Source: Eubacteriales bacterium (GTDB taxonomy: Bacteria; Bacillota; Clostridia; Oscillospirales; CAG-272). Taken from it: a stretch of 64,000 nt of DNA. Positions 7,278 through 40,676 of the stretch are shown piece after piece (position 1 is the stretch's first letter; the number at the start of each line of letters is the position of its first letter). The stretch is from the NCBI GenBank assembly GCA_045653945.1, contig JAZOML010000004.1, forward strand, positions 57,095 through 121,094, given 5' to 3'. The notes beneath the pieces were generated by a model. It did no database searches, was not told where the DNA came from, and saw only the letters and a program-made list of their open reading frames with translations. The position numbers were made by a program, and so were the translations under genes.

Positions 7278-7309
7278 TACTTTTTTTCAAAAAAAATAAA
7301 AAAATTTTT

Positions 7310-7712: not shown

Positions 7713-8062
7713 TCAAACACCTCCGTCTTGAATAAGTCCGCATCAACGTATACACTACCGTCTTGCCTTTCCCTGAGATAGACACCATAGTAGTCCATTA
7801 CAAGTTCGTCCTCTTCCGTCAAGGCAATGATTAGGTAAAAATACTCACCCCTCTCAAGAGTCTCATCCTCTACGGGAGTTACAATCCACATAATCTCCTT
7901 GCCCTCATATTGCTCGTTCTTGGCTATGTCATACTTTGCCCACTCAATAGGAGACTTCGCTTTTTGACTCCACTCATAAGACTCACAAGCGCTCCAAACG
8001 AACACCGTTAATATCGCTGAAAGTATTGCTGTTAAAATAACCGCTACAAAAATCTTTTTCAT
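7709..8062 (-). CDS. Secreted or membrane-anchored phage protein
   Basis: A 117-aa ORF with an N-terminal signal or anchor sequence (MKKIFVAVILTAILSAILTVFVWSAC). ATGA-type overlaps occur at both ends. Confidence 0.6.
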   Translation of the reverse strand: MKKIFVAVILTAILSAILTVFVWSACESYEWSQKAKSPIEWAKYDIAKNEQYEGKEIMWIVTPVEDETLERGEYFYLIIALTEEDELVMDYYGVYLRERQDGSVYVDADLFKTEVFE

Positions 8063-8499
8063 TTCTTTTCTTCCTCCGTATTTCCGTTTAATATTTTTCC
8101 TGCCACCTCATCAATAATGGCACACATCTCATCTTCGTCAAGATAAACGCCCTTAATGCGCTCTCTCAACCTATCACGAAACAATATAACCACCCTCTCG
8201 ACAGTCTTATAGTGCTCTTTTATTAATGTTACAGCACTTTTATAATTTGTCTCGCTAAGCTCCTTCACCTTCGCCCTCTCAAGCGCAAGCGTCTGGGAAT
8301 ATCCGTTCTCGCACTCCTTCAGCCTGTTCTCAAGCTTAAATATCTGCTCACCCTGTTCCTTGATAAGTGCGAGGGCATCTATCAAGCACTTTTTTCTGCA
8401 ACCGAATGTATCTTTACTTTTGTCTTTGTATTCACACTCTCGGCAAGGTTTCCCCGAAGTGCAACACTCCAAAGCCTTAATTATCTGTTCCTTTTCCAT
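8059..8499 (-). CDS. Hypothetical phage protein (Cys-rich N-terminus, coiled coil)
   Basis: The start was moved to MEKEQ because AAAGGAG lies 6 nt upstream. The longer track ORF (to 8640) lacks an RBS and overlaps the 68-aa ORF. Confidence 0.55.
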   Translation of the reverse strand: MEKEQIIKALECCTSGKPCRECEYKDKSKDTFGCRKKCLIDALALIKEQGEQIFKLENRLKECENGYSQTLALERAKVKELSETNYKSAVTLIKEHYKTVERVVILFRDRLRERIKGVYLDEDEMCAIIDEVAGKILNGNTEEEKK

Positions 8500-8683
8500 T
8501 TCCGCTCCTTTCTTTATGCCCCTTGCAAGGGTATTCCTGCTTGAAAAAATATGGGTATGGAACGGGGCAACCGATATTGTCAAAGTATTCGGTATGGTCG
8601 CAATAGTCAGTTCCTCTATCGCTCTTTTTGTGGTGAACACAATTCACGCATTTAGGCGGTACATTATTTTGCCAACCGTTCAT
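8477..8683 (-). CDS. Cys/His-rich 68-aa phage protein
   Basis: ATGA overlap with the stop of the upstream gene. It carries CxxC-HH and further Cys/His residues. It would fill an otherwise 180-nt gap. Confidence 0.45.
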   Translation of the reverse strand: MNGWQNNVPPKCVNCVHHKKSDRGTDYCDHTEYFDNIGCPVPYPYFFKQEYPCKGHKERSGNGKGTDN

Positions 8684-9132
8684 TCCTCTTCCTCGCTTTC
8701 TTCATCAGGATAACTGAATTTATGCGTTTTCTCGTCATACACGGCTATCGGCAAATCCATAACCGATGTGTATTTTTTCGCCGCTTCTTTTATTTTGCCA
8801 ACAATGTCTACATTTTCATTGAGTTTTGCCATAGTACCGCAAAGCAATCCCGTTTCTTTATCGGTTAAACTTGCGTAATAACTATTGCTTTCGATATAGA
8901 ATATCCTGCCGCCCGTTTCGATTTCCTTGCCGATATACTTTACTCGGCACTCTTGATTACGTTCTCTGTCAAGCATTCTTTTCCAGAACGGTGTCTGCCA
9001 CTCCTTATCGTTATGATAGTCCTCAAAGTTCTCACACTCTCCGTCCTCATCTAACGATATCACGGCACAGCCACACACACATCCGTCCGTCAAATACTTG
9101 CACTCATCTTTCCAACATAATACCTTTGTCAT
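8680..9132 (-). CDS. Hypothetical phage protein (Cys-rich N-terminus, acidic tail)
   Basis: A 150-aa ORF coupled at both ends. The N-terminus reads CWKDECKYLTDGCVCGC and the C-terminus reads EESEEEE. Confidence 0.6.
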   Translation of the reverse strand: MTKVLCWKDECKYLTDGCVCGCAVISLDEDGECENFEDYHNDKEWQTPFWKRMLDRERNQECRVKYIGKEIETGGRIFYIESNSYYASLTDKETGLLCGTMAKLNENVDIVGKIKEAAKKYTSVMDLPIAVYDEKTHKFSYPDEESEEEE

Positions 9133-9392
9133 TCCTCGCCCTCGCTTTCAAGCCATTTGGGCTTCGGAAATCTATCTGAATAAGTTATGTTGTCGACCTC
9201 TTCGGCTTCAATTTCGTAAGCATCATCCCAATACTTAAGTAAATCTTCATTCTTAGGAAGATAACATACAATTACCACGTAATCATAGCCTTCCCCCAAA
9301 CACCACCAAGGACATTTGATATCTGGTATACCAATAAGCGGTCTATAATCATCTATTGCTTTTGTCTTAAACCTGTATTTTGTGTACTTCAC
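9129..9392 (-). CDS. Hypothetical phage protein
   Basis: An 87-aa ORF co-oriented with its neighbours. Its stop overlaps the next start. Confidence 0.55.
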   Translation of the reverse strand: MKYTKYRFKTKAIDDYRPLIGIPDIKCPWWCLGEGYDYVVIVCYLPKNEDLLKYWDDAYEIEAEEVDNITYSDRFPKPKWLESEGEE

Positions 9393-9394
9393 TT

Positions 9395-9793
9395 CTACAC
9401 CTCCATAATTTCCAGCCCATGCACGGAACGCATAAGCTTCTTTTTCATTTTGTAAACGTCGGTCTTAACACCCTTGGCATCCTCAACCACCCACTTACCC
9501 TGCCTCTTGTCAAAATAATAAAAATCCGCACGATAGGTTATCGCCCTCTCGGTTACCTTTCCTGCCTTATTCCTCTGCGCTGGCACAAGCACAAACTTCT
9601 TTTGAAGCTCCAGCTTCTCTATCTCGCCCACTCTCTCAAGCACCTTAAGATAAGAATACCGTTCAGCTTCCCTCTTGCTGTCAAACTTAATCCCGTCAAG
9701 AACTACCTTTTTATTCCCATACTTCCGCTGCGGCTCGTCTATGTACCCAAGCTGCCGAAGCAACTGCTCCGCATCCTTACCCCTTATCATCAA
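9395..9793 (-). CDS. DUF1064-family phage protein (putative nuclease/resolvase-like)
   Basis: KYGNKKVVLDGIKFDSKREAERYSYLKVLERVGEIEKLELQKKF matches the remembered DUF1064 signature (KY.N.K....G..FDS..EA.RY..L). Confidence 0.65.
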   Translation of the reverse strand: MMIRGKDAEQLLRQLGYIDEPQRKYGNKKVVLDGIKFDSKREAERYSYLKVLERVGEIEKLELQKKFVLVPAQRNKAGKVTERAITYRADFYYFDKRQGKWVVEDAKGVKTDVYKMKKKLMRSVHGLEIMEV

Positions 9794-9971
9794 TCAGCAC
9801 CCCGATGCCGCGCCCGCACCTGCCGCAACAGACAACCGTAGCAGTATCAAACATATTCCTTTTAGTGTAGGTACCGATAAGCTGCTTCTTTTCCTTGTCA
9901 AAAACGACCTTATTGCACCGCAGACACCTAAACTCGAATTCTGAAACTCCGGGTAAAAACTGTATTTGCAT
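9777..9971 (-). CDS. Zinc-ribbon mini-protein
   Basis: A 64-aa ORF with two CxxC pairs (CLRC, CGRC). Confidence 0.5.
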   Translation of the reverse strand: MQIQFLPGVSEFEFRCLRCNKVVFDKEKKQLIGTYTKRNMFDTATVVCCGRCGRGIGVLIDDKG

Positions 9972-10162
9972 TATTCTTCCTCCGTTTCTAAAAAATCAAT
10001 AAACCTCTGATAACATTCCTCACAGAAATCAAGCCTGTCCCCCGACCAGCTCCTTGCCACACCGGGAGCCCAAATATCAATCCTTGCCGATGATATCTTG
10101 ATATCATAAGCGGAAATCTCTTTTCCGCACCTGTCGCAATTTATTTCAACTTTTCTTGCCAC
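9971..10162 (-). CDS. Zinc-ribbon mini-protein
   Basis: A 63-aa ORF with a GTG start and two CxxC pairs (CDRC, CEEC). Confidence 0.5.
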   Translation of the reverse strand: MARKVEINCDRCGKEISAYDIKISSARIDIWAPGVARSWSGDRLDFCEECYQRFIDFLETEEE

Positions 10163-10163
10163 T

Positions 10164-10270
10164 TAACCATCATCCTCCCTGCACTCCTCAAAAAACTTGC
10201 ATCGTAAACAACAGCTGCGGCACATCTTCTGCCTTGAATGAAATATCCAATGTATAAGCCTCGCAAACAT
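10164..10270 (-). CDS. Possible 35-aa Cys-rich ORF (not in the ORF track)
   Basis: Hand translation gives MFARLIHWIFHSRQKMCRSCCLRCKFFEECREDDG. Its ATG shares the A of the upstream TGA (TGATG). It exactly fills the gap between two genes. Confidence 0.3.
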
Positions 10271-11094
10271 CAACCTTTTCCTCCTTTGCCTTTATAAGTC
10301 CTACTTGTGGCAGCGTCAAAAAACTCGCCTGTATCAAAGCTCCTTGCAAGCTCTCCGCTGCCTGCCTTTTTACCTTTACGCCTCGGGCGTATCTTCTCGG
10401 CCCAACTGTCCGCCGCCGTTACCCACACAGGTAAACACACCCAGCCAATCCCCTCGTTGTACTTAATAAACGCATCAGCTTCGCCCTCAGGTTCGCTCAC
10501 GCCGAGCTTTTTGAAATGATCAACAACACTTTCCCTTTCAGGCGGTACGTGATACCCAAGCGCTTCGGTATTTGCCTTTTTTTCGCGCACAGGCGCTGTT
10601 GTAGTTGTTATACTATTCTTTTCTTTACTTTCCTTTCCTTTACTTTGTCCGCCAATAACCTCGTTTTCGGCGGAATTTACTCCGTTTTCGGCGGAAGAAA
10701 CCCAATTTTTAGGCGTGGCTATCAAAAGGTACCCCTTTTCAAATTTTACAAAGTCGCGTTTCCTTGTTATAGACGCATACGTTTCTTGTATACGCTCCGA
10801 CGTCAGAATACCGTACTCCTTGTAAAGCCTTTGATTAAAAATACCCTCTCGTATAGAGGCGTTCACGACCTCTTCGACAACGTTGATACCTACATTTAAA
10901 CTCTGTGCAAACATCAACGCCACCGGCCGCGACCATTTGGTGTAATATCCCTTCTCGGAATATATCTTTTGCCATAACTTAATAATGATGGCAAAGCCTT
11001 TCAGTCCAAATTCCGCCTCAATTAACTTGACACTGTCGCTCATATGACAGTCAAGTGAGAAATAGTCCACGCCGTCCTTTATTGGACGACCCAT
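10270..11094 (-). CDS. DUF4373-type phage replication/replisome-organizer-like protein
   Basis: The N-terminus MGRPIKDGVDYFSLDCHMSDSVKLIEAEFGLKGFAIIIKLWQKIY matches the remembered Lin1244/DUF4373 N-terminal domain. Confidence 0.6.
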   Translation of the reverse strand: MGRPIKDGVDYFSLDCHMSDSVKLIEAEFGLKGFAIIIKLWQKIYSEKGYYTKWSRPVALMFAQSLNVGINVVEEVVNASIREGIFNQRLYKEYGILTSERIQETYASITRKRDFVKFEKGYLLIATPKNWVSSAENGVNSAENEVIGGQSKGKESKEKNSITTTTAPVREKKANTEALGYHVPPERESVVDHFKKLGVSEPEGEADAFIKYNEGIGWVCLPVWVTAADSWAEKIRPRRKGKKAGSGELARSFDTGEFFDAATSRTYKGKGGKG

Positions 11095-11110
11095 ACTACC
11101 ACCCTCCTTA

Positions 11111-12232
11111 TCAGTCCTTAAAGCTCTCAGCCGCCGCTATAAGCAGCTTGTAAACGGCTCCGTTAAGCTTACCCTTAACCTCACCGCCAGCTCCGTCAAC
11201 CCTCTCGGAAATCTTTGAGAGTATCTCACTTACCTGCTCTATGTAAACGGAAACGACCTTGACAGTATCATCAGAAGCCGCCGCATACTTTGCCTTAAGC
11301 TCCTCAATGCGCTTCTCTGCCTCCGCTTCCGCCTCAGCACGAGCCGCATCTGCCTTGCTGTCCGCTTCAAGCGTCAGCTGCTCCAAATTGACCTTGTACT
11401 TTGCCTCTGCCTCAGAGATAGCCTCCGCTTTGATGCGCTCGATTTCCTCCTCAGATACCTCCGCCACAGGCTGAATACTTCTTAACTCCTCGATTTCCTT
11501 GTTAAGCTTTTTAACCTCGGCTTTATGCTCCTTCTCCGCAGCCTTGACCGCCTTGTCCCTCTCGGAATCTGCCTTTTTAAGAGCATCCTCGGCAACCGCC
11601 TTCGCCTTTTCGGCACTGTCAGCCCTGCCCTTTTCCTCAATGACCTGCATTTCAGCCTTGTTCTTTGCCTGATTAAGATCAATGATTTCCTCATCCCTCT
11701 CGGCAAGCTTATCCTCAAGAGCCTTCTTTTCCTTTATAAGAGCCTTTATCTCACGGCTGGACATTCCCTCAAGGTCATTTTCCTCCGCAAGACGAGCACG
11801 CTCTGCCTTCGGAAGCTTCAAAACCTCAATGACCTGCGAATAATCAAGCCCGGCGAAAAGCTCCGCCTGCGTCTTGCCCGTAAGCATATCCACCTGCCCG
11901 TCCGAAAGCTCCCTATAAATACGCATAAGATTTTGGGCAGTACTGTCCGAATAAGCAACGTTGTGCTCAAGCCACTCGCCCCACTCACCGTGAGGAACGG
12001 ACGCCTTCGCTTCACAAAGCAAACGACCTATCTCATAAACCCCGGAGCGAATATGCCCGCCAAGCGTATGTATAATAGAAGCCGTCTGCGCCTTTATCAT
12101 ATTGATCTCAGCGGCAATAACCGCAGGCGAACGCCCCATAAGAACACCGCCATTTCCCGAAACGCTTGGGATTACCGTTCCTTCTACGTTTCCTTCAATA
12201 TCAATCTGCTCACAAATAATCTCGTTTTCCAT
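11111..12232 (-). CDS. DUF3102-domain protein with long coiled-coil C-terminus
   Basis: AAEINMIKAQT...IGRLLCEAKASVPHGEWGEWLEHNVAYSDSTAQNLMRIY matches the remembered DUF3102 signature. The C-terminal half is K/E/A-rich coiled coil. Confidence 0.6.
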   Translation of the reverse strand: MENEIICEQIDIEGNVEGTVIPSVSGNGGVLMGRSPAVIAAEINMIKAQTASIIHTLGGHIRSGVYEIGRLLCEAKASVPHGEWGEWLEHNVAYSDSTAQNLMRIYRELSDGQVDMLTGKTQAELFAGLDYSQVIEVLKLPKAERARLAEENDLEGMSSREIKALIKEKKALEDKLAERDEEIIDLNQAKNKAEMQVIEEKGRADSAEKAKAVAEDALKKADSERDKAVKAAEKEHKAEVKKLNKEIEELRSIQPVAEVSEEEIERIKAEAISEAEAKYKVNLEQLTLEADSKADAARAEAEAEAEKRIEELKAKYAAASDDTVKVVSVYIEQVSEILSKISERVDGAGGEVKGKLNGAVYKLLIAAAESFKD

Positions 12233-12248
12233 ATTAATATCCTTTCAA

Positions 12249-13937
12249 TTAAGCATTTTTTGTCTGTTGTTGTTTTGTTTTTAGCATATTTACGAACTGC
12301 AACCACTTATTAGCAAAGATTACAACCTCCTCACAAGGGTCCTCGTTTTTATATCCTCGATTCTGCGCTATACCTCCGTCCCTATACTCAAGAGTATAAT
12401 ACGGAACGTCAGGAGCACTTAACGTGCGGATAAAAAATATACTCGTTTTCCCTTTTGAAATATCAGTCCCATACCTTGCTACACAATGGTCGAGCGTTTT
12501 ACCTTCGAGTATCAGCTCCGCTTGATCAGAGCATGGACGAATAAGCAGATTTGCCCTCTCGTCCTTAAAGCATAAAGCTTCAAGTTCCTTGGCTCGTCGT
12601 ATTATTCCCTCGTTTACTATCAGGTCCTGCTTTTCGGCAACAGCCTTGATAGCTTCATCGTGAGCCTTCCGCAGATTTGCGGGAAATCTCATTGAAATAG
12701 GTATATTCCCGTAGAGTTGCTTCACCGCATCAAGATAGTCCATAAAATACTTAGCATCTATTCTTATACTGTACTCCTTGCCAAGCTGCTTACAAAGGTA
12801 ATTAAGCATACTCTCAACCGGCAAAGAGAAGCGCCTTAACAGTTCACGAACATCATGATAACCCGCTTTCATTACGGTATCAAGCAGTTCCTGACTTAAT
12901 CTGATACCGTACTCCCTCTTTATATCCCGATAAAAATCAAGTGCCTTGTAGAGATTATTCCTTGCAATATCCATTTCAGTCTTTTCAAGCCCGAGCATCC
13001 TGTGAGGCTTAACCTCCTCGGTCGCGATATATGTGCTAACCCTCGACAAATCAAGCTTTCCCTTTTGCACGTACCAACCGTAATGTGTTACACTGTTTTC
13101 AAGCACGTCGGTAACTAATTTCTGACAGCCCTGCCGCACCAAATTTTCAATCTGCGGATACTCGCACCAAGTCCTTAAATAATGCGAAGGATAGCTCTCC
13201 GTAGCAGTATCTATGTACTCAAACAGCGCCGAATGAGCCGCATCGGTGCTTTCAACCGTATTTACACCGTCATCAAAGAATATATGCATTCGGTCAAAAC
13301 GGTCTATCTTGTCCTCCCAAGTGTATCTTGGCTGCCACCTTAGAAAGAAGCTTACTGCATTACTGTAATTGTGCTGACAGCCGGCAAAGCGAACACAGGT
13401 TCTGTCTATTACCGCCATTCCCTGCATCTTTTGGCCGCCGTAAACGACCTTTGCTTCCTTGGTAACACACTTGTTTACCCGCCAAGCAAGAACACATAAA
13501 TGCCCGCCGACACTGTGAACGGTAACAACATTATCATAATCTATCTGATATGACGCACTGTTTCCTATTCTTGCGGCACCGACCGCCTCACAATATCGGA
13601 AACAGGACGGACAAGTCGCTCTCTTCCCTGTGTAAACCATCTCGCCACTGCTAACATCACGGAAACCGTAACGGTCAACAGGACCGTAGCTATGACAGCC
13701 CCTCTCTATCGGCATATATTCAAGATAGGTTTCATCTCCACACTCCGAGCACTTGACCTTGACAGCCTTGGTCCTCCGACCGTCGCACATCGGATCGGCG
13801 TAATAACCTATACTGTAAACAAGAGCAGATTTTGACAAAAAGCCTCGGCTCCTTACCTTCTCCGCAACCCCTTCTGGGAGCTCCTGCGGAAGCATCTTGC
13901 AAATCCTATCAAGCTCCTCCCTTACCTGCTTTTTCAA
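12249..13937 (-). CDS. PcfJ-like protein with N-terminal zinc-ribbon cysteines
   Basis: The C-terminus reads LDHCVARYGTDISKGKTSIFFIRTL...YYTLEY (PcfJ-like motif, from memory). CSEC and CPSC pairs are present. The start was set at TTG 13937 (GGAGG 8 nt upstream); ATG 13895 is an alternative. Confidence 0.55.
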   Translation of the reverse strand: MKKQVREELDRICKMLPQELPEGVAEKVRSRGFLSKSALVYSIGYYADPMCDGRRTKAVKVKCSECGDETYLEYMPIERGCHSYGPVDRYGFRDVSSGEMVYTGKRATCPSCFRYCEAVGAARIGNSASYQIDYDNVVTVHSVGGHLCVLAWRVNKCVTKEAKVVYGGQKMQGMAVIDRTCVRFAGCQHNYSNAVSFFLRWQPRYTWEDKIDRFDRMHIFFDDGVNTVESTDAAHSALFEYIDTATESYPSHYLRTWCEYPQIENLVRQGCQKLVTDVLENSVTHYGWYVQKGKLDLSRVSTYIATEEVKPHRMLGLEKTEMDIARNNLYKALDFYRDIKREYGIRLSQELLDTVMKAGYHDVRELLRRFSLPVESMLNYLCKQLGKEYSIRIDAKYFMDYLDAVKQLYGNIPISMRFPANLRKAHDEAIKAVAEKQDLIVNEGIIRRAKELEALCFKDERANLLIRPCSDQAELILEGKTLDHCVARYGTDISKGKTSIFFIRTLSAPDVPYYTLEYRDGGIAQNRGYKNEDPCEEVVIFANKWLQFVNMLKTKQQQTKNA

Positions 13938-13950
13938 ACAAACCGCCTCC

Positions 13951-14313
13951 CTACATAAAATCAAGTAGCGAAAACTTTGCACCGGCAGACTTCGGAATAT
14001 TCCCAGACGCTTCGGTTTTTGGCGCTTCTTCTCTTGACGGTAAACCGTAAAACTCACGCAATATAGCGTCAGACTCACTCGGCGAAACACAAACACACTT
14101 ATGCCCCTTGCTACGCTTGTCCGCAGCCTTCTTTAAAGCTGCCTCGGCGCTCCATATAGCCATACCGTCAACCTCAAGGTCGCGGGCAAGTATTTCAGCA
14201 CACTTCGGATTTTCGGCAGCAATATCCTTTAACTGCTCGCCGACCATAAACACAGCCGAACCCTCATGTCCCTTCTGCTGAGTTGTAATTATTTCCTTTA
14301 CCTTATCTATCAT
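13951..14313 (-). CDS. Small protein upstream of the PcfJ-like gene; PcfK-like/AcrIIA9-family candidate (weak)
   Basis: A 120-aa ORF. The assignment rests on adjacency to the PcfJ-like gene and loose resemblance of its C-terminal half (CVCVSPSESDAILREFYGL). No search was run. Confidence 0.3.
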   Translation of the reverse strand: MIDKVKEIITTQQKGHEGSAVFMVGEQLKDIAAENPKCAEILARDLEVDGMAIWSAEAALKKAADKRSKGHKCVCVSPSESDAILREFYGLPSREEAPKTEASGNIPKSAGAKFSLLDFM

Positions 14314-14558
14314 ACCGCTACCATCCCTTCAGGCAAAACCTCGCCCTTTAATTTCAAATCCTTTAAACCGATGTTGTAAACACAACTCCTGCTCTTGTCA
14401 AGCACCTGCGCAAACTCACTCTGCACACCGTCCTTAAACTCATACCCGACCTGCATAACCCTCTCGCACTCAATCTCAATGCGAGAGCAACCGTCTATGT
14501 ACGAGAACACAACCGGCGCCTGTAACCTCGCCGCAACCAATGCTTCATCAAACGTCAT
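14310..14558 (-). CDS. Hypothetical phage protein
   Basis: The start was set at MTFDEAL (ATG 14558), immediately after the stop of the 53-aa ORF. The longer track ORF overlaps that ORF. Confidence 0.5.
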   Translation of the reverse strand: MTFDEALVAARLQAPVVFSYIDGCSRIEIECERVMQVGYEFKDGVQSEFAQVLDKSRSCVYNIGLKDLKLKGEVLPEGMVAV

Positions 14559-14559
14559 A

Positions 14560-14721
14560 TCAGTTACCAACCTTTCCGCCGTAAATAATCTGATGCTTGT
14601 TCTTGTTCCCCTGCTTCTCTTTGTAAGGCTCAACCGAATACCCACACTTGAATAATAAACGAGCAAGCTCGCAACGCTCATCCTCACGAAGCACCGTAAC
14701 GTCAATCCTTGCCTTTTCCAT
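14560..14721 (-). CDS. 53-aa phage ORF (not in the ORF track)
   Basis: Hand translation gives MEKARIDVTVLREDERCELARLLFKCGYSVEPYKEKQGNKNKHQIIYGGKVGN. It has a TGATG overlap with the upstream stop, and its stop lies 1 nt before the next ATG. Confidence 0.45.
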   Translation of the reverse strand: MEKARIDVTVLREDERCELARLLFKCGYSVEPYKEKQGNKNKHQIIYGGKVGN

Positions 14722-15095
14722 CAAATGCTACCTCCGTTCACAAACACCCAAGCGATAACACCGCTGCAAAGTAATACAACAGTCGCGCAAAACGCTATAA
14801 AAGCACACGCTAAAATCCTCTTAAAACGCTTCATCCTGATAACCTTCCTTACTTTTTTGTCATACTCATCACCGCTATCAAACACGTACTTATCGCCAAT
14901 ATAAAAGAACTCTCGCAATTTATTGCTAAATTCTTCCTTTTTCTCGTTATTTTTCGTAAAATCGCTATTGACAAATTCCCGTGCGTATGATATACTACTC
15001 ATAGAGGAACGCACAATGCGCCCTCCCTTTTCAGAAGCATTTACCGAAAGCTTGCCGGCGTGGGTATATGCTTCTTTTTTTATTGCCTTGTCCAT
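14721..15095 (-). CDS. Tail-anchored phage membrane protein
   Basis: The start was set at MDKAIKK (AGAAGG upstream). It has a C-terminal TM helix (ILACAFIAFCATVVLLCSGVIAWVFV). Confidence 0.5.
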   Translation of the reverse strand: MDKAIKKEAYTHAGKLSVNASEKGGRIVRSSMSSISYAREFVNSDFTKNNEKKEEFSNKLREFFYIGDKYVFDSGDEYDKKVRKVIRMKRFKRILACAFIAFCATVVLLCSGVIAWVFVNGGSI

Positions 15096-15141
15096 TCTTA
15101 TGTACCTTCTTTCCGCCCTCCCGGGCTTTTTTATTTTTGAT

Positions 15142-15420
15142 TTATAATCTTTCCACAAATGTCTTGTCCACCACAGACTCCCAATACTCCATCTCACTGC
15201 GAAGTATCATCTCATCGTGCTGAAGCTTTCCTCCTCCGCAAACGTGCCGTACCGCATTCATAATGTTGTACGCTTTATTTTTGGATATTCCGCCGTAACG
15301 CTCGCAAACGTCCTGAACACGCAAATAGGGACGCTCTGCATCGCCCCTCTCGGTCTTAACGCCTTCCATATACCCCCTCATATACGCCTGCATATACTGT
15401 TCACTTACTGCTCCGGTCAT
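15142..15420 (-). CDS. Small HTH protein (excisionase/regulator-like)
   Basis: A 92-aa ORF. RVQDVCERYGGISKNKAYNIMNAV resembles an Xis/MerR-type HTH. It is the second gene of the early operon. Confidence 0.45.
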   Translation of the reverse strand: MTGAVSEQYMQAYMRGYMEGVKTERGDAERPYLRVQDVCERYGGISKNKAYNIMNAVRHVCGGGKLQHDEMILRSEMEYWESVVDKTFVERL

Positions 15421-15432
15421 TTTTCCACCTCC

Positions 15433-15633
15433 TTACTCAATTTCGATAACCAGCTCGTCCACCTTGCAACCCATCATCTTGGCAATTTCCACTGCCATAA
15501 TAAAGCTCGGTTGCTTAAGACCAACAAGAATGTGCCTTATAGCGCCCTCAGATACACCAAATTTCTTCGCCAGAGCAACGTTTGATACCCCGTGTCCCTT
15601 CATATACTCCGCCAGCTTCTTTCCGTTAAACAT
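15433..15633 (-). CDS. Cro-like XRE-family HTH regulator
   Basis: A 66-aa ORF with HTH VSNVALAKKFGVSEGAIRHIL. It is the first gene of the leftward early operon, opposite the CI-like gene. Confidence 0.75.
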   Translation of the reverse strand: MFNGKKLAEYMKGHGVSNVALAKKFGVSEGAIRHILVGLKQPSFIMAVEIAKMMGCKVDELVIEIE

Positions 15634-15686
15634 TTTTATTTCCCCTCCAATTTATAAAATTTATGTTTTATATTCGTACCACGATA

Positions 15687-15715
15687 TTGACAAATCTGAT
15701 ACCAAATGGTATAAT
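15687..15715 (+). promoter_or_regulatory. Rightward promoter for the CI-like repressor
   Basis: TTGACA-17 nt-TATAAT with TGg immediately upstream of the -10 (perfect consensus). Confidence 0.7.
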
Positions 15716-15744
15716 AAACTGTACTTTCACCACGGTACGATAAT

Positions 15745-15773
15745 ATTATAACCGAACTTTCTGACATTGTCAA
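15745..15773 (-). promoter_or_regulatory. Leftward early (cro) promoter
   Basis: The minus strand reads TTGACA-ATGTCAGAAAGTTCGGT-TATAAT (perfect consensus, 17-nt spacer). It faces the rightward promoter. Confidence 0.7.
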
Positions 15774-15859
15774 TAAAATTTCCTGAACTTTTTGAACTTT
15801 GTGAGTATTGCACAACATTTCGTAATTCAGTTTGTTCGGTTTCATCAAAGGAGTTAGAA

Positions 15860-16198
15860 ATGTTTAAAGAAATATTTATAAAATTGTGCGTTGAACGTAA
15901 TGTAAACCCTACTGTCGTTTGTACACAAATAGGAATTAGCAAATCAAATTTTTCCGAGTGGACTGATAAAACGGTACCAAGAAAAACCACCCTGCAAAAA
16001 ATCGCCGACTATTTCGGCGTAACCGTAGATTACCTACTCGGTAAAACTGAAACACCCGCAACCGACTACGGTATAACCGAAAATATGATCGTGTTTAATT
16101 TAGACGGTCAATCAGAAAAAAAGAAATTAACCCGTGAACAGATGCTTATGCTCAAAGCAATGCTTGATGCACTCCCCGACACTCCTACCGACCTTTAA
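15860..16198 (+). CDS. CI-like XRE-family repressor
   Basis: The start was set at MFKEIF (AAGGAG upstream). The track ATG at 15767 lies inside the leftward promoter. The HTH reads PTVVCTQIGISKSNFSEW. Confidence 0.75.
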   Translation: MFKEIFIKLCVERNVNPTVVCTQIGISKSNFSEWTDKTVPRKTTLQKIADYFGVTVDYLLGKTETPATDYGITENMIVFNLDGQSEKKKLTREQMLMLKAMLDALPDTPTDL

Positions 16199-19110: not shown

Positions 19111-19188
19111 TGGGGTGGGTAATGGGATTCGAACCCACGGCCTCCAGGGCCACAACCTGGCGCTCTAACCAACTGAGCTATACTCACC
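19111..19188 (-). tRNA. tRNA-His (anticodon GTG), with encoded G-1 and CCA
   Basis: Hand-folded cloverleaf: anticodon arm CCAGG-TTGTGGC-CCTGG and T-arm GTGGG-TTCGAAT-CCCAT. The extra 5' G pairs with C73. There is one A4-C69 mismatch in the acceptor stem. Confidence 0.85.
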
Positions 19189-19193
19189 ATATA

Positions 19194-19270
19194 TGGCGTA
19201 CCTTGGGGGATTCGAACCCTCGACCTACTGCTTAGAAGGCAGTTGCTCTATCCTACTGAGCTAAAGGTAC
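19194..19270 (-). tRNA. tRNA-Arg (anticodon TCT), CCA encoded
   Basis: Acceptor stem GTACCTT/AAGGTAC and anticodon arm ACTGC-CTTCTAA-GCAGT. The T-loop is TTCGAAT, with an A50-C64 mismatch in the T-stem. Confidence 0.85.
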
Positions 19271-23648: not shown

Positions 23649-23723
23649 GGCCCGTTGGTCAAGCGGTTAAGACGCTAGCCTCTCACGCTGGAAACAGGGG
23701 TTCGATTCCCCTACGGGTCACCA
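23649..23723 (+). tRNA. tRNA-Glu (anticodon CTC), CCA encoded
   Basis: GGCCCGT-TG-GTC..GAC, anticodon arm CTAGC-CTCTCAC-GCTGG, T-arm AGGGG-TTCGATT-CCCCT and acceptor 3' strand ACGGGTC-A-CCA. Confidence 0.85.
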
Positions 23724-33216: not shown

Positions 33217-34914
33217 ATGTACGATTGCAGATATTGGATCTGGCTCTCTACCAAATTTGAGCCCGGAGCTATTAAATGCGACAAGCTTTTGCAGGAGTTT
33301 GACTACAATCCAAAAGCTATTTACGAGGCGGAGCGTGATGCCTTTGTCAAGGTTTGTGGCTCTAATCTACGGTTGCTCAATGCACTTTGCGACAAAAATC
33401 TTGACGAAACGCTTGAGATACTTCGCTTTTGCGAAAAGCACAACGTTGGCATACTGACACAAGATGACGAAAAGTATCCATCTTCTATTCTTCGCATAGA
33501 CGGACAGCCGCCTGTTATATACTATAAGGGAACGATACCCGATTTTGAACATAGATTTTCAGTCGCTATCGTTGGCACAAGAAAGGTTTCGCCCTACGGA
33601 AGCTCCGCTGCCTATACTATCGCACACGATATTGCCGCCGCAGGCGGAATAATCGTAAGTGGTATGGCGCTTGGTACTGACACCGCCGCTCATAGAGGAG
33701 CTCTAGATACTAAGGGAACAACGGTTGCTTTCCTTGGATGCGGTATTGACGTCATTTACCCTAAGGAAAATGCCGCGCTTATGAAGGAAATTATCCAAAA
33801 CGGCGCAGTTATGACCGATTATCCTCCGCACGCAAGACCAGAGGGGCGCCACTTCCCTGTACGCAACCGTTTAATAAGTGGAGTAAGTCACGGCGTTCTG
33901 ATTGTTGAAGCGGCTAAAAAGAGCGGCGCACTGATAACCGCCGACCACGCAAAAAAGCAGGGTAAGCTTCTCTATGCTATCCCCGGCAGAATAGGTGAGC
34001 TTAACAGTGAGGGCTCGAACAATCTCTTGATTTCGGGCGCAAAAACTGTTCTTAACTCCTCGGATATAATAAACGATTACCGACTGCTTTTCAATCTTGA
34101 TGCAGAGGTCGATATGAGTGGCTTTAAGGGCTTTAAGCCCACCGAGCGTTCAAGTGCCGATTTAAAGCAACCCTACAAAACTCCGACTTATAACCCGTTT
34201 GCAAACGAAACGGGCACCTATTCCGATAGAAACACTGAAACACCCTTTTACGATAGGTTTATTCCATATCCCAAAAGAAAAACGGAACAAACCACCGAGC
34301 AGGCTACCTCCAAGAAACAGTTATCATCCGTCAATTACAAGGCTTTAGATAACGGGGATATGAACGGACTAAAGGCAAGTGAGCCAAAGCCCATAATAAT
34401 TTACAATGATTTCGAGGAAGACGATAGGGCGCGCTCTTATATGTCGATGGGTACAGACAAATCCCCTGAAATTGAGGAGCTTAATGCTCTTGCAGGGCGT
34501 CCCATATTCAGATACCCAAGCGAGCCTATGCCCGAGGGCGGTTACAGGATAACTCACAAAGTCGACCCCAAAGAATACGAAAGAAAAGAACGTGAAAGGC
34601 GTGAAAAGCTAAAAGAGGAAATCGGTGATCCCGATATAATTCGTCCTGTTATTCCCCACGCGCCGACTCTTGAAGAAATGAAGGAGCTTCGCGACAAGGA
34701 TACAATCCTTAAATACAATGACGAATATTCCTCTCTCAACGCTACCGAAAAAGAAATAGTTTACTGTCTTGAGGGCGGCAGAAAAACAATTGATGCAATG
34801 TCGCACCTCGGTATACCCGTTCCAAAGCTTCTTTCAGTTCTCACTATGCTTGAAATTAAGCAAATTGTAAATCAGCTGCCCGGCGGTTATTTCGAATTAA
34901 AGCGCAGGCACTAA
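33217..34914 (+). CDS. dprA: DNA-processing protein DprA/Smf with a long internal low-complexity insert
   Basis: Rossmann core VGTRKVSPYGSSAAYTIAHDIAAAGGIIVSGMALGTDTAAHRGAL and a C-terminal winged-helix-like end. At 565 aa it is well above typical DprA lengths. Confidence 0.85.
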   Translation: MYDCRYWIWLSTKFEPGAIKCDKLLQEFDYNPKAIYEAERDAFVKVCGSNLRLLNALCDKNLDETLEILRFCEKHNVGILTQDDEKYPSSILRIDGQPPVIYYKGTIPDFEHRFSVAIVGTRKVSPYGSSAAYTIAHDIAAAGGIIVSGMALGTDTAAHRGALDTKGTTVAFLGCGIDVIYPKENAALMKEIIQNGAVMTDYPPHARPEGRHFPVRNRLISGVSHGVLIVEAAKKSGALITADHAKKQGKLLYAIPGRIGELNSEGSNNLLISGAKTVLNSSDIINDYRLLFNLDAEVDMSGFKGFKPTERSSADLKQPYKTPTYNPFANETGTYSDRNTETPFYDRFIPYPKRKTEQTTEQATSKKQLSSVNYKALDNGDMNGLKASEPKPIIIYNDFEEDDRARSYMSMGTDKSPEIEELNALAGRPIFRYPSEPMPEGGYRITHKVDPKEYERKERERREKLKEEIGDPDIIRPVIPHAPTLEEMKELRDKDTILKYNDEYSSLNATEKEIVYCLEGGRKTIDAMSHLGIPVPKLLSVLTMLEIKQIVNQLPGGYFELKRRH

Positions 34915-34983: not shown

Positions 34984-37221
34984 ATGGCAAATTTAGTAAT
35001 AGATGAGTCGCCTTCTAAGGCAATAACCATAAAAAACTATCTTGGCTCAGGCTACAAGGTCCTTGCATGTCAGGGACACGTACGCGACCTGCCCAAGAGC
35101 ACACTCGGTATTGACGTCGAAAACGGCTTTACTCCACACTACATCAACATCAGAGGTAAGGGCGACCTTATTGCTACCCTCAAAAAGGAAGCAAAGTCAG
35201 CCACCAAGATTTACCTTGCAACCGACCCTGACCGTGAGGGTGAGGCTATATCTTGGCACCTCTCTATTGCTCTTGGACTTCCCATTGAGCAAACCAAAAG
35301 AGTTTGCTTTAACGAAATTACCAAGAACGCTGTTAAGACGGCTATTAAAACGCCTAGAAATATAGATATAAAGCTTGTTGACTCACAGCAGGCAAGACGT
35401 ATTCTTGACCGTATAGTTGGATATAAGCTCAGCCCGTTCCTTTGGAAAACAGTTAAGAGCGGACTTTCCGCAGGACGTGTTCAGTCTGTTGCAACTAGAA
35501 TTATTGTTGATAGAGAAAAGGAAATAAATGCATTTATACCCGAGGAATATTGGCTCCTCGACGCAACCTTTAAAAATAGTGGCATAAAGGCAAGATATTT
35601 CGGCAAAGTAGGCTCAAGCGCAAAGGTTGAACTTGAAAACGAAGCTCAGACTATGGCGGTTATCGAAGCGGTTAAGGGTGAACATTTCGTAGTCAAGAGT
35701 GTTAAAAACGCTATCAGACAAAAAAATCCCGCTCCTCCCTTTAATACCTCCTCTATGCAACAAGAGGCATCCAAAAAGCTCGGCTTCCAATCACAGTACA
35801 CAATGAAGGTAGCGCAGGAGCTTTATGAAGGTATAAACCTCGGCGCAGAGCACGGCGGTATTCACGGTCTTATTACCTATATGCGTACTGACTCGCTCAG
35901 AGTTTCCGACGAAGCGGTTGCCGCAACAAAGGCGTATATTTCCGAAAAATATAACGATAGGTATCTTCCTTCCTCGACAAGAGTATATAAGGCTAAGGAT
36001 GGCGCGCAGGACGCACACGAGGCTATACGCCCCGCCGACGTAACCCTTGAGCCCGATATGATAAAGAAATATCTAAGCGCCGGTCAGTATAAGCTCTATA
36101 AGCTCATTTGGAGCCGTTTCGTAGCAAGTCAAATGGCAAATGCGGAATTTGATACTCTATCATCCGACGTTCAAGCAGGCGACCATATCTTCCGAGTAAG
36201 CGGAAACGTCGTAAGATTTGACGGTTATATGACACTTTACAAAACCGATGACAGCGACGAAGAAGAAAGCAACCGTATCCCCGATTTAAAGAAAGGTGAG
36301 GAGCTTTCACTTGATGAGCTTATTCCCGCTCAAAAATTCACAGAGCCGCCCGCAAGATACACCGAGGCTACTCTTATCAAGTTCCTTGAGGAAAAGGGCA
36401 TTGGACGTCCCTCTACCTTTGCGCAAATTATCTCTACGATTATCTCAAGAGGATACGTAAAGCGTCAAGGACACTCCCTTACACCCACCTCACTTGGCGA
36501 TATAACCACTCAGCTGATGATTGACAACTTTAAAAACATCGTTGATTACAAGTTCACCGCTAAAATGGAAGACAGTCTTGACAGTATTGCCGACGGCAAG
36601 AATACTCTCGTTTCCGTTCTTTCGGGCTTCTACAAGGATTTCAGCAAGAGCCTTGAAGCGGCTGAGGAAGCTGTAAAGAAGGTCAATATTGAAATTCCTG
36701 CCGAGCAAACAGATATCATTTGCGACAAGTGCGGAAGCATTATGATAGTCAAAAACGGTAGATACGGCAAATTTGCCGCCTGCCCCAACTATCCCGAGTG
36801 CAAAAACACCAAGCCTATCGACTCCGCAAAGCAAAAAAGCGCCGAGCCTGAGACTACCGACCTTATTTGTGAAAAGTGCGGCGGTAAGCTCGTTATCAGA
36901 AACGGCAAATTCGGCTCGTTCTATGCTTGTGAAAACTTCCCCAAGTGTAAGTTCACAAAGCAAATAACCAAGGAAACGGGCGCTCTCTGTCCTAAGTGCG
37001 GCGCAGATATCGTCGCAAAGCGCGGCAAAAACAACACTTCCTTCTTCAGCTGTGAAAAGTTCCCCGATTGCGACTTCTCTACTTGGGACGCTCCCGTAAA
37101 GGACAAATGTCCGCAGTGCTCTTCTCTTATGTTCTACAAAAAGAGCAAGGGTATTGCATACTGCTTTAACAAGGTTGAGTGCGGATATACCACTCCCTAC
37201 GATTACAAAGATGAAGAATAA
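34984..37221 (+). CDS. topA: DNA topoisomerase I
   Basis: Toprim N-terminus ([22 protein letters not shown]), active-site region YMRTDS and four C-terminal Cys4 zinc ribbons. Confidence 0.95.
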
Positions 37222-38545
37222 GGTTACGGTTATCGGAGCAGGTCTTGCAGGCTCTGAGGCAGCTTATCAAATAGCAAAGCACGAAGTTGCAGTTGACCTG
37301 ATTGAAATGAAGCCGAAAAAACGCACTCCTGCGCACTCCTCCGATAAATTCGGCGAGCTTGTTTGCTCAAACTCTCTTCGCTCACTTCAAATTACTAATG
37401 CGGCAGGTATGCTCAAGGACGAAATGCGTATGCTCGACTCCTTAATTATGCAAGCGGCAGATGCAAGTGCAGTTCCTGCGGGGGCGGCTCTTGCGGTAAA
37501 CCGAGAGGAGTTTTCGGCCTATATCACTGAAAAAATAAGAAATAATCCGCTTATAAACGTAATCGAGGACGAGGCTACCGAAATTCCAAGCGACGGAATT
37601 TGCGTTATCGCAAGCGGCCCTCTTACCTCCGATGCTCTTGCAAAGGAAATTGCGGAGTTCTTTGGCGATAAAAAGCTTTACTTCTTTGATGCGGCAGCAC
37701 CTATCGTTGATGCACACTCGCTAAACTATGACGTAGTATTTGCACAGTCAAGATACGACAAGGGCGATGCGGACTATCTCAACTGTCCTATGGACAAGGA
37801 GCAATATCTTACCTTTTACAATGCTCTTATACACGCCGAGGAGGCTGAATTACACGATTTTGATGCCAAAGAGCAAAAGGACCTTACCGTTTTTGAGGGT
37901 TGTATGCCCGTCGAGGTAATGGCTAAACGAGGAATTGACACCCTGCGCTTTGGTCCTATGAAGCCGGTTGGACTTACAGACCCTAGAACAGGCGCTGAGC
38001 CTTATGCCTGTGTGCAATTAAGAGCTGAAAACAAGGAAAAGACAATGTTTAATCTCGTCGGATTTCAAACGCATTTAAAAATCGGCGAGCAAAAGCGTGT
38101 TTTCGGTATGATACCCGGACTTGAAAACGCAGAATTTTTACGCTACGGCGTAATGCACCGAAACACATACATCAACTCCCCCGGACTTATGCAGCCTACT
38201 TATGCAACCGTAAAGCGCCCTACTCTTTTCTTCGCAGGACAAATGACGGGTGTTGAGGGCTACATTGAAAGCGCGGCATCGGGACTACTTGCAGGTATAA
38301 ATGCCGCAAAAATGGCACTCGGTGAGGATACACTAGTATTCCCCGAAAGCACCGTTATCGGTTCAATGGCGGCTTATATCAGTCGCGGCGGTACGGGAAA
38401 GTTCCAACCGATGAACGCAAACTTCGGTATAATCGAGCCGCTTGGATTTAAGGTCAAGGGCGGCAAAAGCGCAAGAAACGAGGCTCTTTACCACAAGGGC
38501 ATTGATGCGCTTGATAAATTTATAAAAGAAAATCTTAACGGATAA
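37211..38545 (+). CDS. trmFO: Methylenetetrahydrofolate--tRNA-(uracil54-C5)-methyltransferase
   Basis: [25 protein letters not shown] motif. ATG 37211 overlaps the topA end by 11 nt. The track N-terminal extension was rejected. Confidence 0.9.
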
Positions 38546-38550: not shown

Positions 38551-39954
38551 ATGCGTGATAATTTTAATCTACTCACTGTTCAAAAGGCGCTTGGGTACAC
38601 CTTTAAGAACGCAGAGCTAATCAAAGCAGCGTTTGTGCATCGCTCGTTTGAGGGCGTTGAAAGTAACCTCAAGCTCGGCTTTGTCGGTGAAAAATTAGTT
38701 GAGTTTATAATTGCGGACTATCTTTTTTCACACGGTGCAACCGTTGGTGAAAAACAGCTTGAGCATTTATTTAACTCCTACATTGAGGCTCTTAAGCCAG
38801 AAAAATATATAATTGATAAGGGACTTTGCGAGCTTATAAAGCTCTCTTCTCTTAACGAATCGCTTAGAAAAAGCAAGGCGGTATGCCGCGAGGTTTTCTT
38901 TGCCGTTTGCACAGCAATTTACAAGGATGGCGGACTTCCGGCACTTAAAAGCTTACTTATGCCTATGATACGCTCACTTGATAAGGGTGAGCATTATGCT
39001 CCAAGTCTTGAGGGTAAGATAATTACAACGGACGATACTCCGCAGGATACCGACAAGCATATCAAAAACGCCCGTGTAAAGCCGAACAAAAGCGGTATCG
39101 GTATTTCAAAGGCGGAAACGGTAAAGCCCGAATCTTCTCACACAAAAAAGGAAAGAGCTAAAAAGATAGAAAAATCTGATGCTCCCATAAAGGAAGAAAA
39201 AACCAAAAAAAGCGGTGCTTTATCAAAGCTTTTTGGCAAAAAGGACGCAGAGCCTGAAAAAAAGGCTGAAGCTCCCGCTGAGGAAAGCGCACAAAAAAAG
39301 CGTTTTATACGTGATGCGCTTGAGCCTGTAAAGCTGTCGGACGACCTTCGTAATTTCAAGCCTAAAAAGAGCGCAAGAACTCCTGATAAGCCTTCCGTAG
39401 ACCAAGCTCCCGTTTCGGTATCTCCACAAAAGGAAGCTCAAAAGGAAAGCGACGATGAAAACTACAAGTCGCTGCTTCAGGAAACGGTACAAAAAAATAT
39501 TCGCTCCGCAAACGTGCTTTTACAGTACAAATCCAGACCCGTAGGTAAAACCAAGTGGTATTCCGAGGTTGTCTTTATGGATAAGGTAATCGGCAAGGGC
39601 GAGGGAGATGGCAAAAGACTTGCCGAAAAGCTTGCAGCTGAGTCCGCCTATAAGGCAATCACAAACAAAAACAGTGAAATAGGACGTTGGTTTGCCTCAA
39701 AGCGTGAGTCAGGCGCAGTGATTGAAGCACCGCAAACCGACTACGTTTCAAAAATCAATCAGTATTTTCAAAAAACACAGCGTCTTTCAAGCGCTCCGAT
39801 TACCTACGAAAAGCGCCACTCCCCCAAAAAGGGTGTTTTCAGAATTGCCGTCGTTTACGAGGGTAAGGAAATCGGCGCGGGAGAGGGCAAAAACCCAAAA
39901 GAGGCAAAGCAAAATGCCGCAAAAGAGGCTTGCAGGACACTGAATATTAAGTAA
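38551..39954 (+). CDS. RNase III-like pseudo-nuclease domain, K/E-rich linker and two dsRNA-binding domains
   Basis: The N-terminus aligns to the adjacent rnc, but the signature reads NLKLGFVGEKLVE instead of NERLEFLGDSVLE, and FFAVCTAIYKD instead of FEALLGAIYLD. Two C-terminal dsRBD-like modules follow (GKGEGDGKRLAEKLAA, GAGEGKNPKEAKQNAA). Confidence 0.6.
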   Translation: MRDNFNLLTVQKALGYTFKNAELIKAAFVHRSFEGVESNLKLGFVGEKLVEFIIADYLFSHGATVGEKQLEHLFNSYIEALKPEKYIIDKGLCELIKLSSLNESLRKSKAVCREVFFAVCTAIYKDGGLPALKSLLMPMIRSLDKGEHYAPSLEGKIITTDDTPQDTDKHIKNARVKPNKSGIGISKAETVKPESSHTKKERAKKIEKSDAPIKEEKTKKSGALSKLFGKKDAEPEKKAEAPAEESAQKKRFIRDALEPVKLSDDLRNFKPKKSARTPDKPSVDQAPVSVSPQKEAQKESDDENYKSLLQETVQKNIRSANVLLQYKSRPVGKTKWYSEVVFMDKVIGKGEGDGKRLAEKLAAESAYKAITNKNSEIGRWFASKRESGAVIEAPQTDYVSKINQYFQKTQRLSSAPITYEKRHSPKKGVFRIAVVYEGKEIGAGEGKNPKEAKQNAAKEACRTLNIK

Positions 39955-39968
39955 AACAGGATGCTATT

Positions 39969-40676
39969 ATGCAAAATGGTAACAATTTAGCGAGCCTTGA
40001 GAAAAGGCTTTCATACGTATTTAAAAGCAAAGCGCTTCTAAGCGAGGCGCTTACGCACTCCTCGTATGCAAATGAATTAATACAGCGCGGCGTTGACTGT
40101 CGCTCCAACGAGAGGCTTGAATTTCTTGGCGACTCAGTACTTGAGATAATAGCAAGTACTTATCTTTTCGAAAGCTTTCCCGACGTGCCTGAGGGTGATT
40201 TAACGAGAATACGCTCGGAAATAATTTGCACTGCAGCTCTTTGTGAATATGCAAAGCAAATACGCCTTGGCGACTATCTTTTCCTCGGCAACGGCGAAAA
40301 GAAAAACGGCGGAAGCGAAAAGCCTACCACCCTTGAAAACGCCTTTGAGGCACTTCTTGGCGCTATTTATCTTGATACGGGATGTATTCTTGATACCGTA
40401 CGGGCTTTTGCGATACCTTTTCTTGCAAAAAGAGCAGGTCAGGCACAGTTTGATTCTACCGACTACAAGTCCGAGCTTCAGCAAATTATTCAGCAAACAC
40501 CGGGCGAGGAATTAAGATACGAGGTTGTAGACAGAATAGGACCTGACAATGACCCAACCTTTACCGTATCGGCGCTTCTCAACAGCAACGTAATCGGCAC
40601 AGGAAAAGGGCCGTCCAAAAGAAAGGCTGAGCAGGCGGCAGCCAAGGATGCTCTTACAAAGTTCTTCAAGAAATGA
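39969..40676 (+). CDS. rnc: Ribonuclease III
   Basis: Signature NERLEFLGDSVLE, then AFEALLGAIYLD, and a single dsRBD (GTGKGPSKRKAEQAAAKDAL). Confidence 0.9.
   Translation: MQNGNNLASLEKRLSYVFKSKALLSEALTHSSYANELIQRGVDCRSNERLEFLGDSVLEIIASTYLFESFPDVPEGDLTRIRSEIICTAALCEYAKQIRLGDYLFLGNGEKKNGGSEKPTTLENAFEALLGAIYLDTGCILDTVRAFAIPFLAKRAGQAQFDSTDYKSELQQIIQQTPGEELRYEVVDRIGPDNDPTFTVSALLNSNVIGTGKGPSKRKAEQAAAKDALTKFFKK

Follow-up and report, generated by a model that had tools for sequence, protein, structure and literature searches.

A conserved RNase III-like gene lacking catalytic residues and carrying two double-stranded RNA-binding domains lies directly upstream of rnc in uncultured gut Clostridia

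Why would a bacterium keep, immediately upstream of its canonical RNase III gene, a second RNase III-like gene whose catalytic residues have gone? The question is raised by a locus in a 64,000-nucleotide stretch of a genome labelled Eubacteriales bacterium (GenBank assembly GCA_045653945.1, contig JAZOML010000004.1, positions 57,095 to 121,094 of the forward strand), hereafter the window, in whose coordinates all positions are given. A model-generated reading of the bare sequence (the original prediction) had pointed to a 467-residue RNase III-like open reading frame (ORF) just 5' of rnc and had proposed that its product is a non-catalytic partner or cofactor of Rnc. Both ORFs are present as described. 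Comparative analysis of the upstream ORF, which we refer to as the paralogue, indicates that it encodes a predicted pseudo-nuclease, that is, a non-catalytic member of the RNase III superfamily maintained by selection. The paralogue occupies 38551..39954 (+ strand, as do all features of the two genes described below), runs from an ATG to a stop codon and is identified by the ORF list together with Pfam and NCBIfam matches. The canonical rnc follows at 39969..40676; it encodes 235 residues, scores 241.7 bits against the RNase III equivalog model TIGR02191, has E48, E51, D55, and E127 intact, and is the presumed functional partner. Between the paralogue stop codon and the rnc start lies a spacer of only 14 nucleotides (39955..39968), in which an AGGA Shine-Dalgarno sequence (39958-39961) precedes the ATG by 7 nucleotides. 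A promoter and terminator scan found neither element in this spacer, which is too short for either, and returned chance-level counts of both overall; an Rfam scan found four tRNAs only, all far from the locus. The paralogue and rnc form one predicted operon.

Catalytic residues were mapped through three concordant alignments: to the solved Aquifex and Campylobacter jejuni RNase III structures, to the adjoining Rnc, and within a 170-sequence alignment of 50 full-length family members and 120 Rnc proteins drawn from their own or neighbouring lineages. E. coli E38, E41, D45, D114, and E117 correspond to L40, G43, E47, E114, and F117 of the paralogue, the first three lying in a degenerate signature motif, SNLKLGFVGEKLV (38662..38700), and the last two in the second catalytic block, CREVFFAVCTAIYKDGG (38884..38934). 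The loss of acidic residues at E38, E41, and E117 and the D45 to E change that had been read from the window are thus all reproduced, and the loss holds family-wide. The E41 position is occupied by V, I, A, G, T, C, or S and is acidic in none of the 50 family members, against E in all 120 Rnc proteins; the E117 position, likewise E in all 120, is L, Y, F, C, S, or I in the family and again never acidic. D45, present in 119 of 120 Rnc proteins, is replaced by E (20 members), K (19), R (5), or another residue (6), and never retained. At the D114 position, 47 of the 50 members have E or D, and the Rnc proteins have N (97) or D (23).

A deep mutational scan of E. coli RNase III tolerated no substitution at E41, D45, or E117 (PMC10037077). 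Because the first and last of these positions are never acidic in the family and D45 is always substituted, a two-metal site is predicted to be impossible in any member. The residues that build the fold are kept: L40, F42, L43, G44, A118, and D126 (E. coli numbering) are found in 86-100% of family members, and the paralogue in the window keeps the scaffold residues L42, F44, and G46 of the signature motif. Its F44, the equivalent of the "ball" residue F42 in the ball-and-socket dimer interface of the E. coli enzyme, is F in 48 of the 50 members, and D56 is invariant in the family alignment. Such a combination, with the metal site gone and the fold and interface helix preserved, reads as the signature of a pseudoenzyme.

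The domain architecture proposed from the sequence, one RNase III domain followed by a charged linker of roughly 150 residues and two double-stranded RNA-binding domains (dsRBDs), stood up to profile searches, all three domains scoring above their Pfam cut-offs. The RNase III nuclease-like domain (RIIID; residues 1-146, 38551..38988) was recognized by Ribonucleas_3_3 (PF14622) at residues 20-136 with 42.4 bits against a cut-off of 35, and phmmer matched the paralogue to 11 RNase III sequences in the PDB. The dsRBDs, each scanned alone with the dsrm model (cut-off 23), scored 37.2 bits for dsRBD1 (residues 303-372, 39457..39666; match at 305-368) and 53.2 bits for dsRBD2 (residues 397-467, 39739..39951; match at 398-464). 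With domain-match E-values of 1e-9 to 1e-32, chance likeness to RNase III and dsRBD proteins is excluded. Against TIGR02191, however, the paralogue reached only 110.6 bits, below the cut-off of 166.25 that the adjoining Rnc clears. AlphaFold2, run with the family alignment, predicted a confident all-helical nuclease-like fold for residues 1-143 (predicted local distance difference test score, pLDDT, about 90), disorder for residues 147-301 (pLDDT below 50), and two alpha-beta-beta-beta-alpha domains with a short helix in between. In Foldseek the nuclease domain of C. jejuni RNase III superposed on the model with a target-normalised template modelling (TM) score of 0.83-0.85 and a root-mean-square deviation of 2.3-2.6 Å.

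The two dsRBDs are well preserved at positions that matter for RNA contact. In dsRBD1, K306, L309, Q310, E311, and Q314 of helix alpha-1 are invariant in the family alignment, and Q310, E311, and Q314 align to Aquifex Q157, E158, and Q161, which contact RNA (PMC3867540). In dsRBD2, the region 3 motif K-E-A-K-Q-x-A-A is conserved, with A452, A456, and A457 invariant and K453 and Q454 nearly so; K355 is likewise nearly invariant. Since RNA-contacting residues are invariant or nearly so, the paralogue has very probably retained dsRNA binding. The segment between the two domains (39667..39738) contains a short conserved helix (residues 376-383) in which F381 is invariant, as seen in the family alignment and the AlphaFold2 model.

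The linker (residues 147-302, 38989..39456) is 156 residues long, rich in K, E, P, and S (36 K+R, 29 D+E, and 13 P; isoelectric point, pI, 9.4), and matched no Pfam domain in the Pfam scan. It was never missing from the 29 family members aligned over this region, in which its length ranges from 111 to 222 residues. It contains several conserved short islands that include RFIRD...NFKPKK. The clearest, the linear motif RFIRDALEPVKLSDDLRNFKPKK (residues 251-273, 39301..39369), identified in the family alignment and checked by translation, is kept in 24 of the 29 and is missing from the subclade P0036-P0040.

The gene belongs to a small and discrete family. A word-indexed search of 5.8 billion proteins recovered 41 clusters with the same layout, down to 31% identity, and an exhaustive hidden Markov model (HMM) search of 1.84 billion representatives recovered about 24 full-length representatives above 350 bits; beyond these and fragments of the family, scores fell sharply to 179 bits, where other architectures begin. 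The ratio of non-synonymous to synonymous substitution rates (dN/dS), computed with two relatives at 84% and 74% identity, is as low in the dead nuclease-like domain (0.08) as in rnc (0.07-0.09), which indicates equal purifying selection. It was 0.06-0.13 in the dsRBDs, 0.05-0.11 in the conserved linker motif, 0.20-0.24 in the rest of the linker, 0.12-0.15 over the whole paralogue gene, and about 0.13 in the radical S-adenosylmethionine (radical-SAM) gene downstream of rnc.

In the GTDB-representative collection the paralogue was found in nine species-level genomes, all of them metagenome-assembled genomes (MAGs) from gut or rumen, labelled Clostridia, Eubacteriales, Oscillospiraceae, or Lachnospiraceae. 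The original prediction had proposed surveying related Clostridia for co-occurrence with rnc, and the paralogue lies directly 5' of rnc in every one of the 12 loci whose flanks are long enough (nine genomes and three metagenomic contigs). These loci read topA-trmFO-(plsX in most)-paralogue-rnc, with the radical-SAM gene and smc next where the contig reaches that far. Two related genomes, with Rnc proteins of 58% and 51% identity, have topA-trmFO-rnc and no paralogue, and in one of them the block runs on into the radical-SAM gene, smc, and ftsY. Because the order is constant in carriers and the same block occurs without the paralogue in relatives, the gene was gained once, directly upstream of rnc, and has kept that position. 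Between its nuclease-like domain and that of the adjoining Rnc, identity is only about 27%, and by domain-wise HMMs the local Rnc ranks 192nd of 240 in a comparison set that was pre-selected for likeness to the family and is hence biased, so that the local Rnc is not detectably closer to the paralogue than other RNase III proteins are. Tandem duplication followed by fast divergence is a plausible origin, with acquisition as the alternative.

What, then, might a dead RNase III do beside a live one? Our leading model, to which we assign a probability of about 0.4, is that the paralogue is a non-catalytic partner that heterodimerizes with Rnc. The gene arose or was inserted just 5' of rnc in a single lineage of uncultured gut Clostridia, where it would be co-transcribed with rnc. 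In its product, hydrophobic or basic residues stand in place of the metal-binding carboxylates, the RNase III fold and the hydrophobic scaffold of the signature helix that forms the dimer interface are retained, and two dsRBDs, predicted to be competent for RNA binding, are carried on a long disordered tether. Pairing of its nuclease-like domain with the nuclease domain of Rnc would produce an asymmetric dimer that has three dsRBDs and, of its two catalytic sites, only one that is live. This dimer would engage longer or different duplexes; it would cleave just one strand, or shift its choice of sites, and the pool of symmetric Rnc homodimers would shrink in step.

Conservation of the interface scaffold leads us to infer that the paralogue still dimerizes through its nuclease-like domain, and it would bind dsRNA without cutting it. 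Pairing with Rnc is favoured because the two proteins are encoded in adjacent cistrons and would be co-expressed, a situation that promotes mixed assembly. Paralogues of a homodimeric protein start out able to cross-dimerize, and in the alignments the interface helices of the paralogue and Rnc show the same hydrophobic pattern. Biochemical precedents also exist: E. coli RNase III engineered into heterodimers of a live and a dead subunit nicks dsRNA, according to the passages of PMC3867540 that cite Meng and Nicholson 2008 and Conrad et al. 2002, and trypanosome editing endonucleases require a non-catalytic RNase III partner (PMC9508840, PMC6800513). We propose more tentatively that the two genes constitute a natural asymmetric RNase III, in which the dead tandem-dsRBD subunit and the live Rnc would act together as a strand-selective dsRNA nickase, or as a "measuring" enzyme with a long three-dsRBD footprint, and in which the conserved linker motifs would recruit further factors.

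Several considerations weigh against a partnership with Rnc. The whole topA-trmFO-rnc-radical-SAM-smc-ftsY block is syntenic, which makes adjacency weak evidence of physical interaction, and adjacency alone cannot separate a heterodimer from a homodimer. Given the low identity to Rnc and the absence of special closeness to the local copy (in the biased set described above), the interface may have drifted to self-association. Random heterodimers would, moreover, poison half of the Rnc, and selection could have acted against cross-dimerization.

The main alternative, in our view only somewhat less likely, is that the paralogue works as a homodimer that binds but does not cleave, bringing four dsRBDs per dimer to duplex RNA that it would protect, sequester, remodel, or mark, in competition with Rnc for substrates or as its complement. 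E. coli RNase III that has lost E117 (E117K, rnc70) binds dsRNA without cutting it (PMC10037077), and the paralogue would be the natural counterpart of this laboratory mutant. The "ball" residue F44 and the rest of the interface scaffold are retained within one protein, both dsRBDs are intact, and the nuclease domain has diverged far from that of Rnc. In 24 of the 50 members the D45 position is K or R, which would favour metal-independent binding of phosphate in the dead cleft. Binding as a homodimer gives no account of the family-wide linkage to rnc, though history alone could produce it. A structural or scaffold role in a ribonucleoprotein, for instance as a ribosome-assembly or ribosome-bound factor whose linker motifs recruit others, seems to us unlikely. 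Its precedents are mL44 and mL57, in which a dsRBD-like module accompanies a degenerate domain of RNase III type and RNA is bound, not cleaved, but which are permanent rRNA-binding proteins of the mitochondrial ribosome. Foldseek matched the paralogue, with E-values of about 1e-5, to chain "c" of several mitoribosome large-subunit structures; the output gives this chain no name, and we take it to be mL44. Pre-rRNA is the main housekeeping substrate of RNase III, and the long, disordered, basic linker with its several conserved short motifs would suit a scaffold. Against this role, the Pfam mL44 domain (PF22935) matches Rnc and misses the paralogue, and confinement to one small clade would be unusual for a ribosome component.

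It is less probable still that the altered domain cuts RNA by a non-canonical route. R3B2 of Mucorales, which like the paralogue has two dsRBDs and a single atypical RNase III domain whose catalytic positions are substituted, shows that substituted residues need not mean inactivity (PMC8136814), and the paralogue family keeps an acidic residue at the D114 position in nearly all members as well as the invariant D56. R3B2 differs, however, in being fungal, confined to Mucorales, active on single-stranded RNA, and without an adjacent canonical partner, and we detected no specific homology between it and the paralogue. In none of the 50 members of the paralogue family is the E41 or the E117 position acidic, and K or R often stands at the D45 position, so that the two-metal site should be unable to assemble; no alternative conserved cluster of acidic or histidine residues is apparent in the family alignment. 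The view that the gene is a decaying duplicate or an annotation artefact without function fits the loss of catalytic residues and is effectively refuted by the rest: the frame is intact in about 40 clusters, dN/dS is low in the dead domain and in both dsRBDs, and architecture and position are conserved. The original prediction, which had named a decayed pseudogene as one of the outcomes that would overturn it, thus met no such evidence. Its second suggestion, a dsRNA sensor, found no support, since no PADLOC defence model matched the paralogue and its neighbours form a housekeeping operon (dprA, topA, trmFO, rnc, smc, ftsY); the sole PHROG match is to a generic RNase III-like family of unknown function.

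How does the paralogue compare with RNase III proteins already described? With bacterial class 1 RNase III (Rnc) it shares the nuclease fold, the N-terminal helix motif LGYxFK...AFxHxS, the scaffold of the signature helix, the type of dsRBD, and the operon. It differs from a catalytic Rnc equivalog in its carboxylates, with E41 and E117 missing and D45 substituted in every member, in its TIGR02191 score, and in architecture, having two dsRBDs instead of one and a long disordered linker where that of the canonical enzyme is short. Mini-III (MrnC) consists of an active nuclease domain only and has no dsRBD, in contrast to the paralogue with its two dsRBDs and absent catalytic residues. These two categories, canonical RNase III and Mini-III, make up the bacterial family in a 2022 review (PMC10989914). 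Our full-text literature searches turned up neither a catalytically dead RNase III paralogue nor a tandem-dsRBD protein described from bacteria; as far as this literature goes, the paralogue is the first pseudo-RNase III with tandem dsRBDs from a bacterium.

For pairing with Rnc, the best analogy in function comes from trypanosomes, in which the degenerate RNase III paralogues KREPB4-8 are required alongside the catalytic KREN1-3, each pair having one competent site and cutting one strand (PMC9508840, PMC6800513, PMC3867540). As in the KREPB proteins, the degenerate nuclease domain of the paralogue is conserved under selection. The KREPB proteins differ in being eukaryotic and mitochondrial, in carrying zinc-finger and PUF-like modules instead of dsRBDs, and in acting within a large complex; beyond the shared domain they have no specific sequence relationship to the paralogue, for which the heterodimer is a proposal made here. 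Compared with the engineered E. coli heterodimers, which are laboratory constructs, the dead subunit in the rnc operon is natural, separately encoded, conserved, and equipped with extra domains. The original prediction had likened the protein to the partners of Dicer and Drosha (TRBP, PACT, Loquacious, R2D2, DGCR8, HYL1/DRB). The likeness holds for the tandem dsRBDs, which in those proteins accompany an RNase III and tune its choice of substrate, and Loqs-PB and DRB4 are among the dsRBD matches of the paralogue. Otherwise it is loose, since an RNase III domain is missing from those partners. They also dock on the helicase or other accessory domains of their enzyme, whereas bacterial Rnc has neither helicase nor PAZ, and the trypanosome partners are closer.

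The family would add to bacterial RNase III a third kind, a conserved tandem-dsRBD pseudo-nuclease in the rnc operon. Were the protein to pair with Rnc, regulated or strand-specific cleavage of dsRNA by means of a dead paralogue would no longer be confined to eukaryotes, and the pair would represent a compact, naturally evolved dsRNA nickase; as a two-gene asymmetric RNase III it would parallel, in bacteria, the KREN/KREPB pairs and, in function, Dicer with its dsRNA-binding partner. If it acts alone, it would be a dedicated multi-dsRBD RNA-binding protein, rare in bacteria. Either way the locus would illustrate cleanly how a pseudoenzyme evolves once a homodimeric enzyme has been duplicated, with sister genomes lacking the gene available for comparison. 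The range is narrow, the carriers all being uncultured gut or rumen Clostridia, and the function is read from sequence; to specialists such a protein would be surprising.

The presumed partner itself carries a substitution that had been remarked on from the sequence, correctly: Rnc has N124 (codon 40338..40340) at the E. coli D114 position, in its ENAFE motif (nucleotides 40335-40349; LENAFEAL in its longer form). Among the 120 nearest Rnc homologues, 97 read LEN-A-F-E-A and 16 read LED. In E. coli, D114 is the sole active-site residue that tolerates mutation, D114G having a fitness of 0.99 with cleavage kept (PMC10037077), for which reason the Rnc of the window is very probably active despite N124. 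The substitution is probably benign and perhaps alters metal affinity. We considered whether the acidic residue at this position of the paralogue compensates for the N of Rnc and rejected the idea, as N-type Rnc occurs without the paralogue (L021) and D-type Rnc occurs with it (L002, L003, L006). By this distribution, N at D114 is a lineage-wide feature unrelated to the paralogue.

The exhaustive search of metagenomic proteins also returned other unusual forms of RNase III. P0197 (373 residues) has two dsRBDs and P0214 (409 residues) three, both with intact active sites, and whole tandem copies of RNase III fused in one chain occur among P0191 (480 residues), P0192 (544 residues), and P0254 (486 residues), the second copy in P0192 having lost D114 and E117. 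P0295 (358 residues; L027, 3844-4920, on a prokaryote-like contig from Logan SRR15660235) has two RNase III domains in one chain, a degenerate N-terminal one (TRLAFLGNG..., LDTLFKAIL) fused to a canonical, active-type domain with one dsRBD. It is a singleton so far and, being only 23% identical to the paralogue domain, this dead-plus-live fusion is probably an independent invention. Long charged linkers are not unique to the dead paralogue: in some Clostridia-like organisms a catalytically intact rnc encodes a long, disordered K/A/P-rich insert between nuclease domain and dsRBD. In P0204 (426 residues; L024, 2460-3740) this insert is about 230 residues long; no other RNase III gene was seen on the 8.5-kb contig, where P0204 lies in a plsX-rnc-smc arrangement. 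P0203, P0206, and P0211, which also have the insert, are 283-351 residues in total length. Of P0197, P0214, P0204, and P0295, all except the N-terminal half of P0295 keep intact catalytic residues, and in none are a dead domain and two dsRBDs found together in a gene of their own beside rnc. Two very strong matches to dsRBD2, P0189 and P0195, were set aside as irrelevant because they look like eukaryotic dsRBD-repeat proteins, P0195 with a protein-kinase-like end.

Around the paralogue the window carries tightly packed housekeeping genes on the same strand: a gene for a SpoU-type rRNA methylase, dprA, topA, and trmFO on one side of the paralogue-rnc pair and, beyond rnc in the same block, the radical-SAM gene, smc, ftsY, a Ham1-family (rdgB-like) gene, a cytidylyltransferase-like (nadD-like) gene, and an HD-domain gene. 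In L022, trmFO and the paralogue are separated by plsX; L002-L009 have about 1.1 kb in the corresponding gap, presumably occupied by plsX as well. It does not lie at this junction in the window, L001, L025, or L026; in the subclade of the window the gap from trmFO to the paralogue is 5 nucleotides, and plsX has moved or been lost from that position. As mechanically called, the trmFO ORF (37154-38545, + strand) starts at a TTG and overlaps the end of topA by 68 nucleotides; the likely true start is the ATG at 37226, where the Pfam GIDA match and the homologues begin. The DprA homologue (33217-34914, + strand) is 565 residues long; its DNA_processg_A domain covers residues 72-279 only, and the C-terminal extension of about 285 residues has no Pfam match at an E-value of 1e-5 or better.

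Further from the locus, tRNA genes lie at 5856-5948, 19114-19270, and 23649-23720. Strongly negative GC skew (-0.19 to -0.35) characterizes positions 1-16000, with values near zero over 20000-64000, and the large ORFs in the first 16 kb lie mainly on the minus strand. The shift in skew may mark a change in the orientation of replication or transcription, or a compositionally distinct segment.

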